The position numbers and the translations under genes are program-made. This document shows, in pieces, positions 20,674-48,066 of a stretch of 64,000 nt of DNA (positions within the stretch are counted from its first letter, which is position 1; the number at the start of each line of letters is the position of its first letter). The notes below the pieces were generated by a model that was given only the letters and a program-made list of their open reading frames with translations, had not been told where the DNA came from and searched no databases. This DNA comes from Patescibacteria group bacterium (GTDB taxonomy: Bacteria > Patescibacteriota > Minisyncoccia > Moranbacterales > UBA2206): positions 17,441 through 81,440 of the forward strand of contig JAKLFF010000002.1 of the NCBI GenBank assembly GCA_022711335.1, written 5' to 3'.

Positions 20674-21801
20674 TTATTTTTCCCTCAAGATTCTGGCGGT
20701 TTCATCCGCGCATTTTTTCCAGCTGAATCTTTTGACATTCTCATGCCCTTTTCCAACTATATCATCTTTCAAACCTTTATCGCTAATAAGCCTGAAAGCG
20801 GCATCAGCAATGGATTCCGGCTTATACGGATCGGTATAAAGCACGCTATCACCTCCGACTTCCGGAAGCGAGGAAATGTTGGATGTAACAACTGGCACGC
20901 CCATATTTTGCGCCTCCAGAATCGGCAGTCCGAATCCTTCATAGAAAGTTGGAAACAAAAATGCATCTGCATTTTTTATGAGCTCTCCCTTTTCTTCATC
21001 TTTCACAAATCCTGGTAAAATTATATCTGCTTTATGCTTGCTATGTTCTATTTTATTTTTTATGCTTTCCGCTCCATAACCGAACTTTCCAGCCAATATT
21101 AATTTATGCAGTATTTTATGTTTTTCTTTCAATATTTCAAAAGCCGAAACAATTCCTTCGATATTCTTTCTCTTTTCAAGCCGGCCGATAAAGAGTAAAT
21201 GGGGCTCTTTAATTTGGGATTTTTTTGGAAATTGGAAATTGGAAATTGGAAATTCTTGGTTGACTCCCTCATAAATCACTTCTATTTTCCCCTCCGGAAC
21301 CTTGTATAACCTCATTAGATCTTTTTTGGTATTATTAGAAACGGCTATGACAGTCTTCGCCCATCGGCAGGAAAATTTGATTGACCACCGCATATATAAC
21401 TGTTCCCAAAAAGAATAAGCCTCTGGACAAAATTCATATTCCAGTCCGTGAATGGTAACAATTGTATTTTTTGGATGAACAATCGGCACAACATGTGCCG
21501 GGATAAAAAGAACATCCGCAGGGTGAAACAGCAACTCCAAAGATAATCCTATTTGCGTCCATAAATAGGGAAATTTTATTATTTTTACTTTCCAATTTTT
21601 TGGTATTTCTAACTCTTCACTTTTTAATTTTGAATTGTCATTTTGACTTTTAATTTTTGATTTTTGATTTTTTTTAATATACAAAACAACCTGGTCGTTC
21701 CCCAGCTTATTTCGCAAATGTTTTATAACTTGATATGAATATTCTTCTATCCCGGTGCGATTTTTTTGAAAAGCGCGGGAAGCGTCGATACCAACTATCA
21801 T
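20674..21801 (-). CDS. GT4 (group 1) glycosyltransferase with low-complexity in-frame insertions
   Basis: EGFGLPILEAQNMGVPVVTSN...PEV C-terminal GT4 motifs. Contains the tandem ggaaattg repeats at 21215..21255 and the AT-rich element at 21600..21680. Confidence 0.8.
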   Translation of the reverse strand: MIVGIDASRAFQKNRTGIEEYSYQVIKHLRNKLGNDQVVLYIKKNQKSKIKSQNDNSKLKSEELEIPKNWKVKIIKFPYLWTQIGLSLELLFHPADVLFIPAHVVPIVHPKNTIVTIHGLEYEFCPEAYSFWEQLYMRWSIKFSCRWAKTVIAVSNNTKKDLMRLYKVPEGKIEVIYEGVNQEFPISNFQFPKKSQIKEPHLLFIGRLEKRKNIEGIVSAFEILKEKHKILHKLILAGKFGYGAESIKNKIEHSKHKADIILPGFVKDEEKGELIKNADAFLFPTFYEGFGLPILEAQNMGVPVVTSNISSLPEVGGDSVLYTDPYKPESIADAAFRLISDKGLKDDIVGKGHENVKRFSWKKCADETARILREK

Positions 21802-21915
21802 AATTTTTAAATTTTGTAATTTTTAATTTTATAAATAATATTTTAATGCTTTAATTTTTAAACATTAAAAATTTATATTTATTTAAAAATTCAAAAATTC
21901 AAAAATTATAAAATT

Positions 21916-22923
21916 CTATTTACTAAGCGTTATCGTCCTCTTGTAAAGCTCCAAATTATCCAGAGCGATTCCGATTCCTTTTACCACGCAAAAGAGCGCG
22001 TCGTCCGCCACATAGCAGGGAACGCCGATGGTTTTTGTGATAAGCTGGTCGAGATTCTTAAGAAGCGCTCCGCCGCCGGAAAGCACCATTCCCTTATCCA
22101 TAATGTCCGCCGCCAGTTCCGGGGGGGTAACTTGCAACACTTTTTTTATCGCATTTATAATTTCCCGAAGTTCGTCCTGGATCGCTTCTGTCACTTCATT
22201 GGCCGAAACTCTCACAGTCTTGGGAAGCCCGCCGGTAAGATCGCGTCCTCGGACATCCATATATTCTTCTTTGACTTGCGCTATGGCCGAACCGATATTC
22301 TTTTTCACATCTTCCGCTGTCCGGTCTCCGATCGCTAAACTGTATTTTCGCTTGATATAGTCAGCGATAGCCTGATCAATTTTGTTTCCTCCGACTCTGG
22401 CACTGTTAGCCGCCACTATTCCGCCCAGAGATATTACCGCCACTTCTGAAGTTCCGCCGCCGATATCAATAATCATATTTCCAGCCGCATTTGCAATGGG
22501 AATCCCTGCCCCGATTGCCGCCAGCATCGGCTCCTTGACGACATAAGCCGCTTTGGCTCCCGCGCGCACCGCCGCGTCGATCACCGCCCTTCTTTCCGTC
22601 GAAGTCACGCCTACCGGAATGGAAATCATCACTTCCGGCCGCACTAGCCGGAATTTTCCGCTAACTTTATTGATAAAATATTTGAGCATTGCTTCCGTGA
22701 TTTTATAGTCCGCAATAACTCCGTCTTTCATCGGACGGCTCGCAAAAATAGTATCGGGTGTGCGCCCCAGCATTTCCTTGGCATCGTTTCCCACCGCCAA
22801 AACCTTGTTTTCCGCGATTGAAATTGCCACCACGCTTGGTTCATTGGCAACGACGCCCTTGCCGGGAACAAAGACTAAAATATTGGCTGTGCCGAGATCG
22901 ATTCCGATTTTTCTAACTAACAT
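21916..22923 (-). CDS. mreB: rod-shape determining protein MreB
   Basis: IGIDLGTANILV...actin-like ATPase motifs; 335 aa. Confidence 0.9.
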   Translation of the reverse strand: MLVRKIGIDLGTANILVFVPGKGVVANEPSVVAISIAENKVLAVGNDAKEMLGRTPDTIFASRPMKDGVIADYKITEAMLKYFINKVSGKFRLVRPEVMISIPVGVTSTERRAVIDAAVRAGAKAAYVVKEPMLAAIGAGIPIANAAGNMIIDIGGGTSEVAVISLGGIVAANSARVGGNKIDQAIADYIKRKYSLAIGDRTAEDVKKNIGSAIAQVKEEYMDVRGRDLTGGLPKTVRVSANEVTEAIQDELREIINAIKKVLQVTPPELAADIMDKGMVLSGGGALLKNLDQLITKTIGVPCYVADDALFCVVKGIGIALDNLELYKRTITLSK

Positions 22924-22928
22924 AAAAA

Positions 22929-45683: not shown

Positions 45684-45689
45684 TTTTTT

Positions 45690-45800
45690 AGAATTTAGAA
45701 TTATGAATTTAGTATTTTGAATGAGAATATTGAATGCTGAATAACTATTCTAAATTCTTTATTCTTGATTCCCATTCTAAATTCCAAATACTAAATTCAA
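45690..45800. repeat. about 115-bp AT-rich palindromic element, copy 2 of 2 (partner 1780..1900)
   Basis: ttagaatttagaattatgaatttagtattttgaatgagaat...ttcccattctaaattccaaatactaaattc. Lies immediately 5' of gatC. Confidence 0.6.
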
Positions 45801-45804
45801 AATT

Positions 45805-48066
45805 CTATTTAAATAGCCTCTTAAATTCCCTTTCATTAATTATACCAACTCCCAGCTTCTTCGCCTTGTCGTATTTCGATCCCGGGTTTTCGCCGGCCAC
45901 GACATAATCGGTTTTAGCGCTCACGGAACCGGAAACGTCTCCGCCAGCTTTTCTAATCATATCTTTTGCCTCGTCTCTTGTAAAGTTTTCGAGCTCTCCG
46001 GTAAGGACAAAAGTCTTGTTTTGCAATTTGTAATTAGCAACTAGTAATTTAGAATAATTTTCTAATTTTACTCCTAGCCTATCCATTTTTTCCAGAAGTT
46101 TTAAATTATCTTTATCGCTAAACCAATCAACTAGGCTTTCTGCCGACTTTTCCCCTATGCCCTTTATGCCCATCCACTGTTCTTTATTGATTTTAGAAAA
46201 ATATTCGATAATGTCTTTTAAATTTTTAATTTTGCATTTTGAATTGTCATTTTGATTTTTGATTTTTGATTTTTGATTTATTGCATTACTGTATATTTTT
46301 TCGATGATTGCTAAATTCTTCGATATTAAAACTGAGCTTTCCTCGCCCAAATATCTGATCCCCAGCGCAAACAAAAATTTTTCAAGCGCTATCTTCTTGC
46401 TTTTTTCAATGGAAGCGATCAGATTGTCTGCTGATTTTTCCGCAAAGCGCTCAAGCGGCTCCAGGTCGCCCTTTTCGAGTTCAAAAATTTCCGCCGCGTT
46501 AGATATGATTCCTTCATTCATCAATTGTTCAACTATTTTTTCGCCCATTCCGTCGATATTGAAGCCTTTTTTGCTGGCAAAGTGAATTATTTTTTCTTTT
46601 TCCACCGCAAAACATTTCGGATTTAGACAGTATGTCGCCGCACTTGTTTTAGAGGTTCGACCTCTTTTGGTCGTTTCGGTCGAGAGAGGTCGAACCTCTA
46701 GATTTTCTCGAGAAACCGCCCCTCCGCAAATAGGACATCTTGCGGGCATGTGAAAGATTTTTTCATTTCCCGTCCGCAGGTTTTTGATCACCTCGACGAC
46801 TTCTGGAATAATATCCCCAGCTTTACGAACAACCACCGTGTCTCCAATTCTTATGTCCAATCTTTTTATCTCATCCTCATTGTGAAGCGTGGCGCGGGAA
46901 ACAGTCGATCCGGCGACAGAAACCGGACGCAGATGCGCAAGCGGAGTGAGAGCTCCCGTTCGTCCAACCTGCACTTTTATATCTTCAACTACCGTTGTCA
47001 CTTTTTCGGCCGGAAATTTGTAAGCCACGCCCCAGCGCGGAGATTTTCCAGTATACCCCAGCGCTTTTTGAATTCCATTCGAATTAATTTTAATCACAAT
47101 TCCATCCAGGCCATAATTCAAACTGTCCCTTTTTTCAATCCATTTTCGACAGTATTCTTCAATTTTCTCTATGTTTTTACAAAGTTTATATTCTTCATTG
47201 ATATTAAATCCCAGCTTTTTAAGCAATTCTAACTCTTCTATTTGCGTTTCAGGAATCCCGTATTCCCCCCTCTCCCTCTGAGAGAGGGTGCCCGTAGAGC
47301 GGGTGAGGGAAATATAATCCATATCATAAATAAAACACTCCAGTTTCCTTGACGCCGCCACTTTAGGATCCAGCTGCCGGATGGTTCCAGCCGCTGCATT
47401 CCGGGAATTAGCGAACAAAGCCTCTTTTCTGCCAGCTCTTGTTTCATTAATTCTATTAAGTTCATCTTTTCCCAAATAACATTCTCCGACCACTACGCAA
47501 TCAACTGGATAATTTAGCTTCAAGGGTATGCTGCTTATGGTTTTCAAATTATTAGTAACATCCTCTCCGATTATCCCGTCTCCCCTCGTTGCCCCCCGGA
47601 TAAATATTCCATTTTCGTAAGTTAAAATCACTTTGAGCCCATCAATTTTCAACTCACAACAAAAATCAATATAAAAAACATCCCCCCTCTCCCTTTGGGA
47701 GAGGGTGCCCGAAGGGCGGGTGAGGGAAAACTTATTTATTAGTCTTGAGACCTTTTCCTCCCACTTTCCCAATTCTCCAAAGCTAAAAACATCATCAAAT
47801 GACCATTGCCTCACTTGATGGCGCACCTTTTGGAATTTTGAAAGCGGTTTTCCGCCGATTCGGCCGATAGGAGAATCCGGGAGTTTCAATTCCGGATATT
47901 TTTCCTCGAGCTCTTTGAGTTCGCGGGTCAGGGAATCATAAACCTCGTCCGTAGCATCCGGCTTGTCCAGAATATGGTATTCGTAGCGAAGCTTATTTAT
48001 CTCCGCCGTCAGCTTTTCTATACGGTTTTTTACTCCTATTTTATCCATATATTGATTATATCCCAT
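45805..48066 (-). CDS. ligA: NAD-dependent DNA ligase carrying three in-frame repeat insertions
   Basis: Adenylation motif CELKIDG; OB, Zn-finger (CPICGG...C), HhH and BRCT regions. At 753 aa it is about 80 aa longer than typical LigA because of the inserts at 46219..46285, 47265..47310 and 47683..47727. Confidence 0.9.
46219..46285. repeat. AT-rich element (ttgaattgtcattttgatttttgattttt) in-frame in ligA, coding [19 protein letters not shown]
   Basis: Near-identical core to the insert at 21600..21680 in the GT4 gene (coding KSKIKSQNDNSKLKS). Confidence 0.75.
47265..47310. repeat. GC-rich palindromic element in-frame in ligA (codes [16 protein letters not shown])
   Basis: cccccctctccctctgagagagggtgcccgtagagcgggtgaggga. 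Confidence 0.85.
47683..47727. repeat. GC-rich palindromic element in-frame in ligA (codes [15 protein letters not shown], 8 aa before the KxDG lysine)
   Basis: cccccctctccctttgggagagggtgcccgaagggcgggtgaggga. Confidence 0.85.

Follow-up and report, generated by a model that had tools for sequence, protein, structure and literature searches.

Probable solo arms of an RPE-like, heptamer-periodic dispersed repeat within ligA and a glycosyltransferase gene of a Moranbacterales genome

We analyzed a 64,000-nucleotide stretch of a Patescibacteria genome (contig JAKLFF010000002.1, positions 17,441 to 81,440; hereafter the window), in which the DNA ligase gene ligA and a gene for a GT4-family glycosyltransferase contain nearly the same A-rich, in-frame stretch. 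These stretches are probably solo arms of a small dispersed repeat that resembles the Rickettsia palindromic elements (RPEs), forms hairpin pairs between genes, and is tolerated as an in-frame passenger within open reading frames (ORFs). The two host genes and their arms are as follows.

45805..48066, minus strand: host gene 1, NAD-dependent DNA ligase LigA, 753 aa (Pfam DNA_ligase_aden, OB, HHH and BRCT; homologues named LigA of Candidatus Moranbacteria)
46228..46281, minus strand: A-rich heptamer arm (~54 nt) as found in ligA, (AAATCAA)x4 - ATGACAAT - TCAAAATGCAAAATT, from sequence and translation
20674..21801, minus strand: host gene 2, GT4-family glycosyltransferase, 375 aa (Pfam Glyco_transf_4 and Glycos_transf_1; homologues)
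21619..21675, minus strand: GT4 copy of the arm, AATCAAA AATCAAA AATTAAA AGTCAAA ATGACAAT TCAAAATTAAAAAGT, encoding (NQK)SKIKSQNDNSKLKS

The stretch common to both genes comprises 43 nt of the minus strand, which is sense for the two genes (AATCAAAAATCAAAAATyAAAArTCAAAATGACAATTCAAAAT), and ligA 46236-46278 and GT4 21627-21669 agree at 41 of its 43 positions, including a non-repetitive 22-nt part. A preliminary description of this DNA had reported an AT-rich repeat in these two genes; its locations, now assigned to the sense strand, and its in-frame peptides (NQKSKIKSQNDNSKLKSEE in GT4) were correct. It had also set beforehand a permutation test as a possible refutation, and the outcome favors a real repeat, as the GT4 region, shuffled locally 20,000 times with dinucleotides preserved, never attained 41 matches (maximum 34). 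Elsewhere in the window we found no further site with three or fewer mismatches to the 43-mer, as was the case in 100 whole-window shuffles, and the next-best unrelated match reached ~30/43. When the GT4 heptamers were permuted in order only, 41 matches were attained in 8 of 20,000 trials. A chance likeness, in an AT-rich genome, between two coding stretches that are Lys/Asn-rich and of low complexity would be helped by the AT-richness of both, by their partly tandem (AATCAAA)n units and by the low complexity of the encoded peptides, but it does not account for an identity that includes the non-repetitive part, for the shuffle results and the distance to the next-best match, or for hundreds of external copies with common flanks outside the search pattern. 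We give this explanation virtually no credence; the permutation tests and the external family have already refuted it.

The external copies also reveal what the preliminary description did not include, namely the heptamer periodicity, the identity of the arm as one half of an inverted pair, and its spread over many phyla. The family was gathered with the exact non-tandem 20-mer TCAAAATGACAATTCAAAAT, with at least 120 matching stretches among metagenome contigs and at least 118 among one-genome-per-species GTDB contigs; all family counts given here are among the matches listed, which represent ~222-229 distinct sites. Arithmetic from base composition yields a chance expectation of ~1-10 matches for this 20-mer. 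At least two in-register NNCAAAA heptamers, located upstream and outside the query, were present in 191 of 222 distinct sites (~86%), and the ~10-15 sites without upstream heptamers are in line with the chance expectation. The unit is ~54 nt long, contains <25% G+C, and consists of 7-8 NNCAAAA heptamers around an invariant ATGACAAT (consensus AATTCAAAATTCAAAAWTCAAAAATCAAAATGACAATTCAAAATKNAAAATT). Its ends are discrete: the information profile falls sharply on either side of the core, ~25-27 nt upstream and 8 nt downstream, with boundaries that are alike in the coding and intergenic subsets. In the window, Tandem Repeats Finder (TRF) recovered both arms as degenerate period-7 arrays, at 46222-46279 in ligA and at 21621-21672 in GT4.

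Hosts of the family include Moran-, Kuenen-, Wolfe-, Zambryski-, Doudna-, Staskawicz-, Uhr-, Yanofsky-, Azam-, Nealson-, Terry-, Portnoy-, Berkel- and Pacebacteria, as well as Microgenomates, Minisyncoccales and Saccharibacteria. Full elements were also found in metagenome-assembled genomes (MAGs) labelled Dehalococcoidia/Chloroflexota, Elusimicrobia, Omnitrophota, Gammaproteobacteria and Bdellovibrionales, labels that may be unreliable. The core was absent from IMG/VR viral contigs, giving no sign of a phage vector, and the 30-aa insert region had no hits among 1.84 billion protein representatives, a query that is too short and of too low complexity for HMMER. Errors of assembly or sequencing, or a common exogenous sequence as contaminant, might be suspected from two MAGs (AUK069 and AUK098) in which many matches lie 50-100 nt from contig ends. 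Multi-copy repeats are expected near contig ends, however, and the in-frame copies in conserved genes, the independent assemblies (JGI, ENA, Logan, NCBI), the divergent flanks and the variant heptamers leave an artefact with a negligible probability.

In these two MAGs and 'Gammaproteobacteria binchicken_co38_723' (together L124-L234), and in L052 and L056, the arm lies within a 200-300-nt composite repeat that runs from an (AATCTTA)n array through the arm to a CCCTCCCCC..GGGAGGGGGAGG element, the GC-rich part of which resembles a GC-rich in-frame family of the window. One MAG has the composite repeat in at least 18 of its contigs, frequently 50-100 nt away from an end; the repeat is thus high-copy and assembly-breaking.

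We next consider the inserts in relation to orthologous genes. In alignments, the ligA insert (~aa 597-614) forms a 17-aa block that is present in some orthologues and missing from most. The block is unchanged in orthologue P0001 and also occurs in P0013, which is only 70% identical overall; P0002, P0003 and P0006 carry it in diverged form, and it is missing from P0004 (81% identical) and most other orthologues. Contrary to the preliminary description, which had placed it between the HhH and BRCT regions, the Pfam domain limits (HHH_5 503-554, HHH_2 621-657 with profile positions 27-63 only, BRCT 681-751) put the insert inside the helix-hairpin-helix region. In a poor AlphaFold model of LigA (mean predicted local distance difference test score, pLDDT, of 62), aa 598-611 form a coil between two helices with pLDDT <50. 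As RNA, both window arms are unstructured (ligA arm: minimum free energy -4.1 kcal/mol, z +0.4), and an Rfam gathering scan gave no match at the ligA or GT4 arm site.

The GT4 insertion spans 14-18 aa and is present in P0121, P0122, P0128, P0160 and P0180 but missing from most orthologues. The empty site in P0126 reads AGA AAA AAC CAG AAA ATT GAT TTT, relative to which the window has 14 extra codons past the native K-N-Q-K; the native KNQKI codons at the empty site already read AAAAAACCAGAAAATT. The 5' end of the GT4 arm blends into these native KNQK codons, and the 3' end of the ligA arm likewise blends into native K-I/V-K-N-L codons. In the AlphaFold model of GT4 (mean pLDDT 83.5), values <50 are confined to aa 56-61, the arm insert, and to aa 179-195, a second heptamer insert that is encoded by the following array.

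21225..21254, minus strand: second in-frame heptamer array in GT4, of another flavor, (TTGGAAA)x4.3 as read on the plus strand, peptide FPISNFQFP (TRF, 100% matches; alignment)

Both genes also contain the element at second sites. The LigA of P0099 has it at ~aa 121, and the GT4 of P0170, P0194 and P0227 has a QNDNSK arm at the variable site that is occupied by the TTGGAAA array in the window. Together with the patchy distribution among orthologues, these second sites are evidence of recurrent insertion at the DNA level. In other lineages, other heptamer-derived peptides, for example ISNFQFPNNFQF and KFKVQSSKFKV, stand at the same ligA and GT4 hot spots. The orthologue alignments thus uphold the claim that the AT-rich repeat is inserted in frame in two unrelated genes (17 aa in ligA, 14-18 aa in GT4). 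The wider suggestion that coding regions tolerate repeat insertions in general finds stronger backing than the preliminary description could give it, in the second sites, in the alternative heptamer peptides at the same hot spots, and in the presence of the element in frame in at least 17 other protein families of other genomes.

Two side observations concern the same arrays. In almost every orthologue of this GT4 family, different heptamer-coded peptides fill the linker that joins the two Rossmann domains (alignment columns ~224-290), and the intergenic gap 23549-23589 holds a near-copy of the TTGGAAA array of the window, preceded by TTGTCATT.

The DNA of the ligA insert is conserved above its host gene. 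Across 20 codons, the window and P0013 share 95% nucleotide identity and 95% third-position identity in the insert, versus 67-74% nucleotide and 47-53% third-position identity in its flanks, making the insert the best-conserved 20-codon window of the entire gene in this comparison. Strain L243, of the same species, has a ligA that is 99-100% nucleotide-identical to that of the window outside a mosaic block at aa 551-700 (71-79%), with short divergent blocks also at aa 1-50 and 401-450; this mosaic is evidence that homologous recombination with divergent alleles has taken place in the population. The L243 arm lies within the recombined block and is ~81% identical to the window arm by hand count, keeping the NNNNAAA grammar and ATGACAA (AATCAAA ATGCAAA TCTCAAA ATGGAAA ATGACAA TTTAAAA GGTAAAA). 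The 95% identity of the insert to P0013 and the ~81% identity of the arm in L243 together indicate that decay in place and homogenization toward the family consensus both occur.

Heptamer periodicity characterizes this genome: over-representation in the window is specific to period 7, with 26 arrays at a 70%/28-nt threshold versus 0-4 for the other periods tested (4-13), and 7 arrays of period 14, a multiple of 7. Intergenic DNA (9.6% of the window) accounts for 8-12 of the period-7 arrays and insertions in the 23S rRNA gene for 9/26, whereas coding DNA (82% of the window) has only ~4, of which two are in GT4, one is in ligA and one is weak. This over-representation of period 7 would be compatible with independent expansion in situ, in which slippage on native A-rich codons (KNQK = AAAAATCAAAAA) generates both stretches with no transfer between loci. 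Heptanucleotide repeats are reported to be the commonest long simple sequence repeat class in bacteria and are ascribed to polymerase slippage (PMC4679880), native seeds exist at the GT4 site, and the number of AATCAAA units varies among copies. Slippage probably does adjust arm length. It cannot, however, account for the non-repeated ATGACAATTCAAAAT segment that both stretches share, for their sharp common ends, or for one and the same unit in ~30 unrelated gene sites and at least 100 intergenic sites of many lineages, nor does it fit ligA inserts that are 95% identical between the window and P0013 with flanks at 67-74%. A simple heptanucleotide microsatellite is an uninterrupted run of a single unit, without unique internal sequence and with variable ends; here we find a unique ATGACAAT heptamer, fixed ends, and a match that was rarely recovered (8/20,000) when heptamer order was shuffled. 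We therefore regard slippage as very unlikely to be the sole source of the two stretches.

Copies in coding DNA obey simple strand and frame rules. The matches include 47 copies in long ORFs and ~180 outside ORFs, such that ~80% are non-coding, and all 20 host ORFs tested belong to genuine Pfam families, at least 17 in number. Hosts comprise MnmA, P-type ATPases (two sites), TGT, MurB, Ile/Val-type, Leu- (two sites) and Met-tRNA synthetases, RNase HII, the CCA-adding enzyme, TsaD (two sites), a MiaB-like enzyme, Fpg, SecA, a MurD-like ligase, topoisomerase I (TopA), NUDIX and a radical-SAM activase. The sense strand of the coding copies is the A-rich strand in every case, and the T-rich strand contains TGA in all three frames. 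Within the sense strand, 43 copies use the QNDNSK frame, 4 use the KMTIQN frame (as in RNase HII and Fpg), and none uses the frame that contains TGA. Coding copies are solo arms; only 1 of 46 was scored as paired, and its ORF is probably spurious.

The strong single-frame bias (43 QNDNSK vs 4 KMTIQN), along with a placement that is always in loops or linkers, might alternatively reflect selection on the protein, with the peptide acting as a linear motif or flexible linker that is recruited repeatedly and the DNA likeness following from biased codon usage. This explanation is difficult to reconcile with a family in which ~80% of copies are non-coding and a second frame is in use, or with third positions that are 95% conserved in the insert vs ~50% in the flanks. 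Moreover, the models assign the insert no structure, and different heptamer peptides substitute for it at the same sites. We consider a protein-level module very improbable.

Between genes, the arm often occurs in pairs. We analyzed 121 intergenic copies with enough flank, of which 47 start -30 to +90 nt from the end of a same-strand ORF of at least 100 aa, often at the stop codon. An imperfect reverse-complement arm was found within 220 nt downstream in 66/121 copies (55%) and upstream in none, and the order is always A-rich then T-rich, on either strand. The spacer between arms has a median of 23 nt (range 0-175), often forming only a 0-25-nt loop, and 17 of 35 long spacers have their own GC stem-loop, often ending ...GGGATACCWAA. 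Of five pairs folded, four give stable hairpins with -27 to -32 kcal/mol and z -3 to -5, and the remaining one, L201, reaches -18.5 kcal/mol (z -1.2); the stems are AU-rich with periodic mismatches, and the structure runs from the A-arm through a loop or GC stem to the T-arm. The left and the right arm are systematically different (...ATCAAAATGACAATTCAAAAT vs reverse complement ...TGNAAAATGACAATGTAAAAT), such that the sequence of each end, rather than pairing alone, appears to be conserved. With this arm order, a long AU hairpin would form in transcripts of either direction, at times with a small central GC stem-loop. From the position after stop codons and the arm order, we infer that the intergenic form may act as a terminator or 3'-end-stabilizing structure, although the lack of covariation between arms makes this uncertain. 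The window has its own example of the intergenic inverted-pair form.

45687..45807, minus strand: heptamer-type hairpin of another flavor (TTTAGAA/TTCTAAA arms), directly 3' of the ligA stop codon (TRF; inverted repeats)

This hairpin, which is identical in strain L243, has an RNA fold of -32.5 kcal/mol (z -5.5), and is an architectural relative rather than a copy of the TGACAAT arm.

Two further tests of the arm had negative outcomes. Covariation of the paired arms, a sign of structural selection or of fold-back copying, was not observed (0.626 vs 0.657, as detailed below). A sigma-70-like promoter in the arm (ATGACA, 17 nt, AAAAAT) gave only 9/12 matches, no better than background, and the face-to-face arrangement in pairs would make such a promoter senseless; this idea was dropped.

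The reading that we favor is that of solo arms of an RPE-like repeat. The data show that the two stretches belong to a widely dispersed family with discrete ends, that they went into A-rich, structurally permissive sites, and that orientation and frame decide which copies persist. Selection would retain only those copies in which the A-rich strand is read as sense, since TGA occurs in all three frames of the T-rich strand, and would also purge copies in the sense frame that contains TGA. As ~54 nt correspond to 18 codons, the frame of the host would be preserved. In LigA and GT4, the insert would be a tolerated, disordered Lys/Asn/Gln/Ser-rich loop of 14-18 residues, that is, a passenger and not a functional module. 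The mode of spread that we favor would be microhomology-guided template switching or gene conversion from other arms, with arm ends that merge with native heptamer-like codons (KNQKI in GT4, K-I-K-N-L in LigA) as the microhomology; alternatively, a transposition-like activity might recognize TGTCAT. Considerably more tentative, and in our view doubtful as a whole, is the broader proposal of a ~54-nt heptamer-periodic element, frame-compatible on one strand, that spreads horizontally through the whole candidate phyla radiation (CPR) and some neighboring uncultivated phyla via a putative copying machinery, possibly by recognition of a TGTCAT/ATGACA tag in common with GC-rich hairpin repeats, and that is a major generator of lineage-specific insertions in CPR housekeeping proteins and rRNA genes.

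Several observations weigh against the favored RPE-like reading. The family was gathered with an exact 20-mer, and the apparent conservation of the core is therefore partly circular; the taxonomic labels of the MAGs are possibly unreliable. The L243 arm has diverged about as much as the recombined flanks (81% vs 71-79%), so that the ligA insertion is old, vertically inherited there and not visibly active. Within the 64-kb window, the TGACAAT arm is found in ligA and GT4 only, with no intergenic source copy, and there are no further TGACAAT cores in L001. No mobilizing enzyme or autonomous partner was identified, although no transposase search was made, and no clear target-site duplication could be called at ligA or GT4 against the empty-site references (P0004 and P0126, respectively), because the A-rich flanks merge with the arm. 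Identity at the variable positions of paired arms is 0.626 within loci vs 0.657 between loci, with no compensatory covariation, which weakens the case for selection on hairpin structure. Finally, a process acting purely on DNA does not explain the 43:4 frame bias, which implies that the peptide is also under selection; NDN is more loop-friendly than MTI.

The DNA uptake sequences (DUS) of Neisseria and the uptake signal sequences (USS) of Haemophilus occur as inverted pairs after genes, where they serve as terminators, with coding copies in tolerable frames and poorly conserved protein regions. By analogy, the arm could be a motif that is preferred by a conserved uptake machinery of competent CPR bacteria, that accumulates by molecular drive within genes and, in inverted pairs, at terminators, and that is shared across lineages. 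Its core is exactly conserved across many CPR classes, inverted pairs stand after genes, and coding copies are limited to tolerable frames and poorly conserved protein regions; in addition, a type IV pilus gene cluster adjoins ligA, ligA itself is a recombination mosaic, and competence has been shown in Saccharibacteria (PMC10187176). The density is far too low, however, with 2 cores in 64 kb vs ~1 per kb for DUS/USS, the copies are 42-54-nt insertions instead of matches made by point mutation, the arms are constrained to an A-rich then T-rich orientation, and no receptor is known. We rate an uptake signal as highly improbable.

Among known systems, the closest analogue of the favored RPE-like repeat is the RPE itself (Ogata et al. 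2000, as summarized in PMC10969869). Both are small, non-autonomous dispersed repeats that occur between genes and in frame in many unrelated housekeeping genes, as permissive surface insertions, in a reduced-genome, host-dependent bacterium (PMC10969869). The present family has in-frame as well as non-coding copies, a patchy presence relative to orthologues, and a placement in fold-compatible surface loops, for which the poor LigA model gives weak support. Whereas RPEs measure ~100-150 bp and enter ORFs as whole palindromes (PMC10969869), we find only a solo ~54-nt arm in ORFs, because the other arm is full of TGA. The arm also differs in being heptamer-periodic and extremely AT-rich, and in occurring across many CPR classes and apparently some non-CPR MAGs vs a single genus (PMC10969869). 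The likeness that we claim to RPEs is one of features rather than of sequence.

The intergenic pairs of conserved ends that form hairpins after genes are also reminiscent of transposable elements of the miniature inverted-repeat type (MITEs) and terminator-like repeats, such as SPRITE of S. pneumoniae and Correia elements (PMC10969869), as is their multi-copy, assembly-breaking character in some MAGs. In contrast to MITEs, the segment between the arms is not conserved (0-175 nt), solo arms occur, and left and right arms differ systematically. With repetitive extragenic palindromic (REP) sequences and bacterial interspersed mosaic elements (BIMEs; PMC3733652), the family has in common short extragenic palindromes at gene ends and a short conserved tag by the stem, here TTGTCAT/ATGACAA. 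REPs are, however, 20-40 nt long, GC-rich, marked by a GTAG or CGTC tag and essentially extragenic (PMC3733652), whereas the arm is ~54 nt long, AT-rich and without such a tag. No REP-associated tyrosine transposase (RAYT) was seen, although no search aimed at RAYTs was made.

Cyanobacterial short tandemly repeated repetitive (STRR) sequences are also heptanucleotide tandem repeats. TAACTGA heptamer repeats have been described in Beggiatoaceae, cyanobacteria and Bacteroidetes (PMC4679880), and resemble the present family in their period of 7, in being mostly intergenic with occasional stop-free copies in ORFs, and in a scattered phylogenetic distribution that suggests horizontal spread without a known mechanism (PMC4679880). 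They are, however, runs of identical heptamers upstream of start codons (PMC4679880), whereas the arm consists of degenerate NNCAAAA units around a unique central heptamer, with fixed ends and length, an inverted partner and a position after stop codons. With the DUS of Neisseria and the USS of Pasteurellaceae, the family shares an exact motif common to a clade, inverted pairs and coding copies in tolerable frames, but it differs in a density that is orders of magnitude lower and in consisting of insertions rather than in-place matches. The searchable literature yielded nothing that links the CPR to MITE-, RPE-, REP- or heptamer-type elements, and nothing containing the motif as DNA or as peptide. 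Our best reading is thus an RPE-like dispersed repeat that is undescribed in the searchable literature and unusual in its heptamer periodicity, its solo-arm coding copies, and its near-identity across the whole radiation.

Proteins and rRNAs of CPR/Patescibacteria are known for unexplained lineage-specific insertions, at least some of which can now be tied to a concrete, searchable DNA element. Its rules are few and easy to check, namely a unit of fixed length (~54 nt), a sense strand that is always the A-rich one, one forbidden frame, and permissive loops. If the favored RPE-like repeat is correct, 'selfish DNA inside genes', so far a Rickettsia curiosity, extends to a huge unrelated radiation, which raises the question of how ~95% sequence identity is kept in hosts whose genes are saturated at synonymous sites. 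In practical terms, the arms break assemblies, create spurious low-complexity 'hypothetical proteins', and may lead to errors when marker genes, among them ligA, leuS, secA and topA, are aligned or used for phylogenies. Should the intergenic hairpins prove to be terminators, they would represent the first recognizable terminator class for CPR.

The relationship of the arm to GC-rich repeats is less simple than the independence asserted in the preliminary description. The sequences do differ, in agreement with that view, but the 200-300-nt composite repeat of other genomes joins the arm to a CCCTCCCCC...GGGAGGGGG element, and TTGTCAT/ATGACAA, contained in the arm core, recurs at the termini of a different GC-rich hairpin repeat of the window. 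This is a ~88-nt double-hairpin repeat with four copies at gene ends (15342-15430, 17349-17431, 23347-23429 and 45321-45403) and the form TTGTCAT-TCCCGCGAAAGCGGGA-ATCYAGT ... ACTGGAT-CCCGGGTCAAGCCCGGG-ATGACAA. Its termini are MITE-like (TG...CA), and the same heptamer is the invariant center of the AT-rich arm. TTGTCAT/ATGACAA is a possible recognition tag; TTGTCATT occurs 11 times in the window vs 3.3 expected and, apart from the two arms, makes up the termini of these four copies.

ligA contains three further in-frame GC-rich inserts, at 46652-46698, 47264-47312 and 47681-47729. One is a palindrome with a 20-bp stem, 10 pairs of which are G-C, in the zinc-finger region, and the other two are copies of the CCCTCTCCC..GGGAGAGGG family; orthologues have different inserts at these sites. 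Counting the AT-rich arm, ligA alone thus hosts four repeat-derived inserts.

Heptamer arrays are also prominent in the 23S rRNA gene (30288-35585, minus strand), in which group I introns are present. Two near-identical composite inserts, at 30380-30600 and 33891-34070, contain in order a GC hairpin, an A-rich heptamer arm, a TTTTGTCAG-tagged GC core, a T-rich (TTTCGAA)n arm and a GC hairpin, matching the architecture of intergenic elements elsewhere, yet inside an rRNA gene. An exact 192-nt direct repeat (33306-33497 = 34685-34876), consisting largely of heptamer arrays, stands around a 1.2-kb segment of the same gene. Within the type IV pilus gene cluster that adjoins ligA, an ORF at 52627-53022 (minus strand) has Pfam matches to 23S_rRNA_IVP and to bAvd, the accessory protein in diversity-generating retroelements; (AAGAAGA)/(TTCTTCT) heptamer arrays lie on its two sides, at 52576-52606 and 53022-53061.

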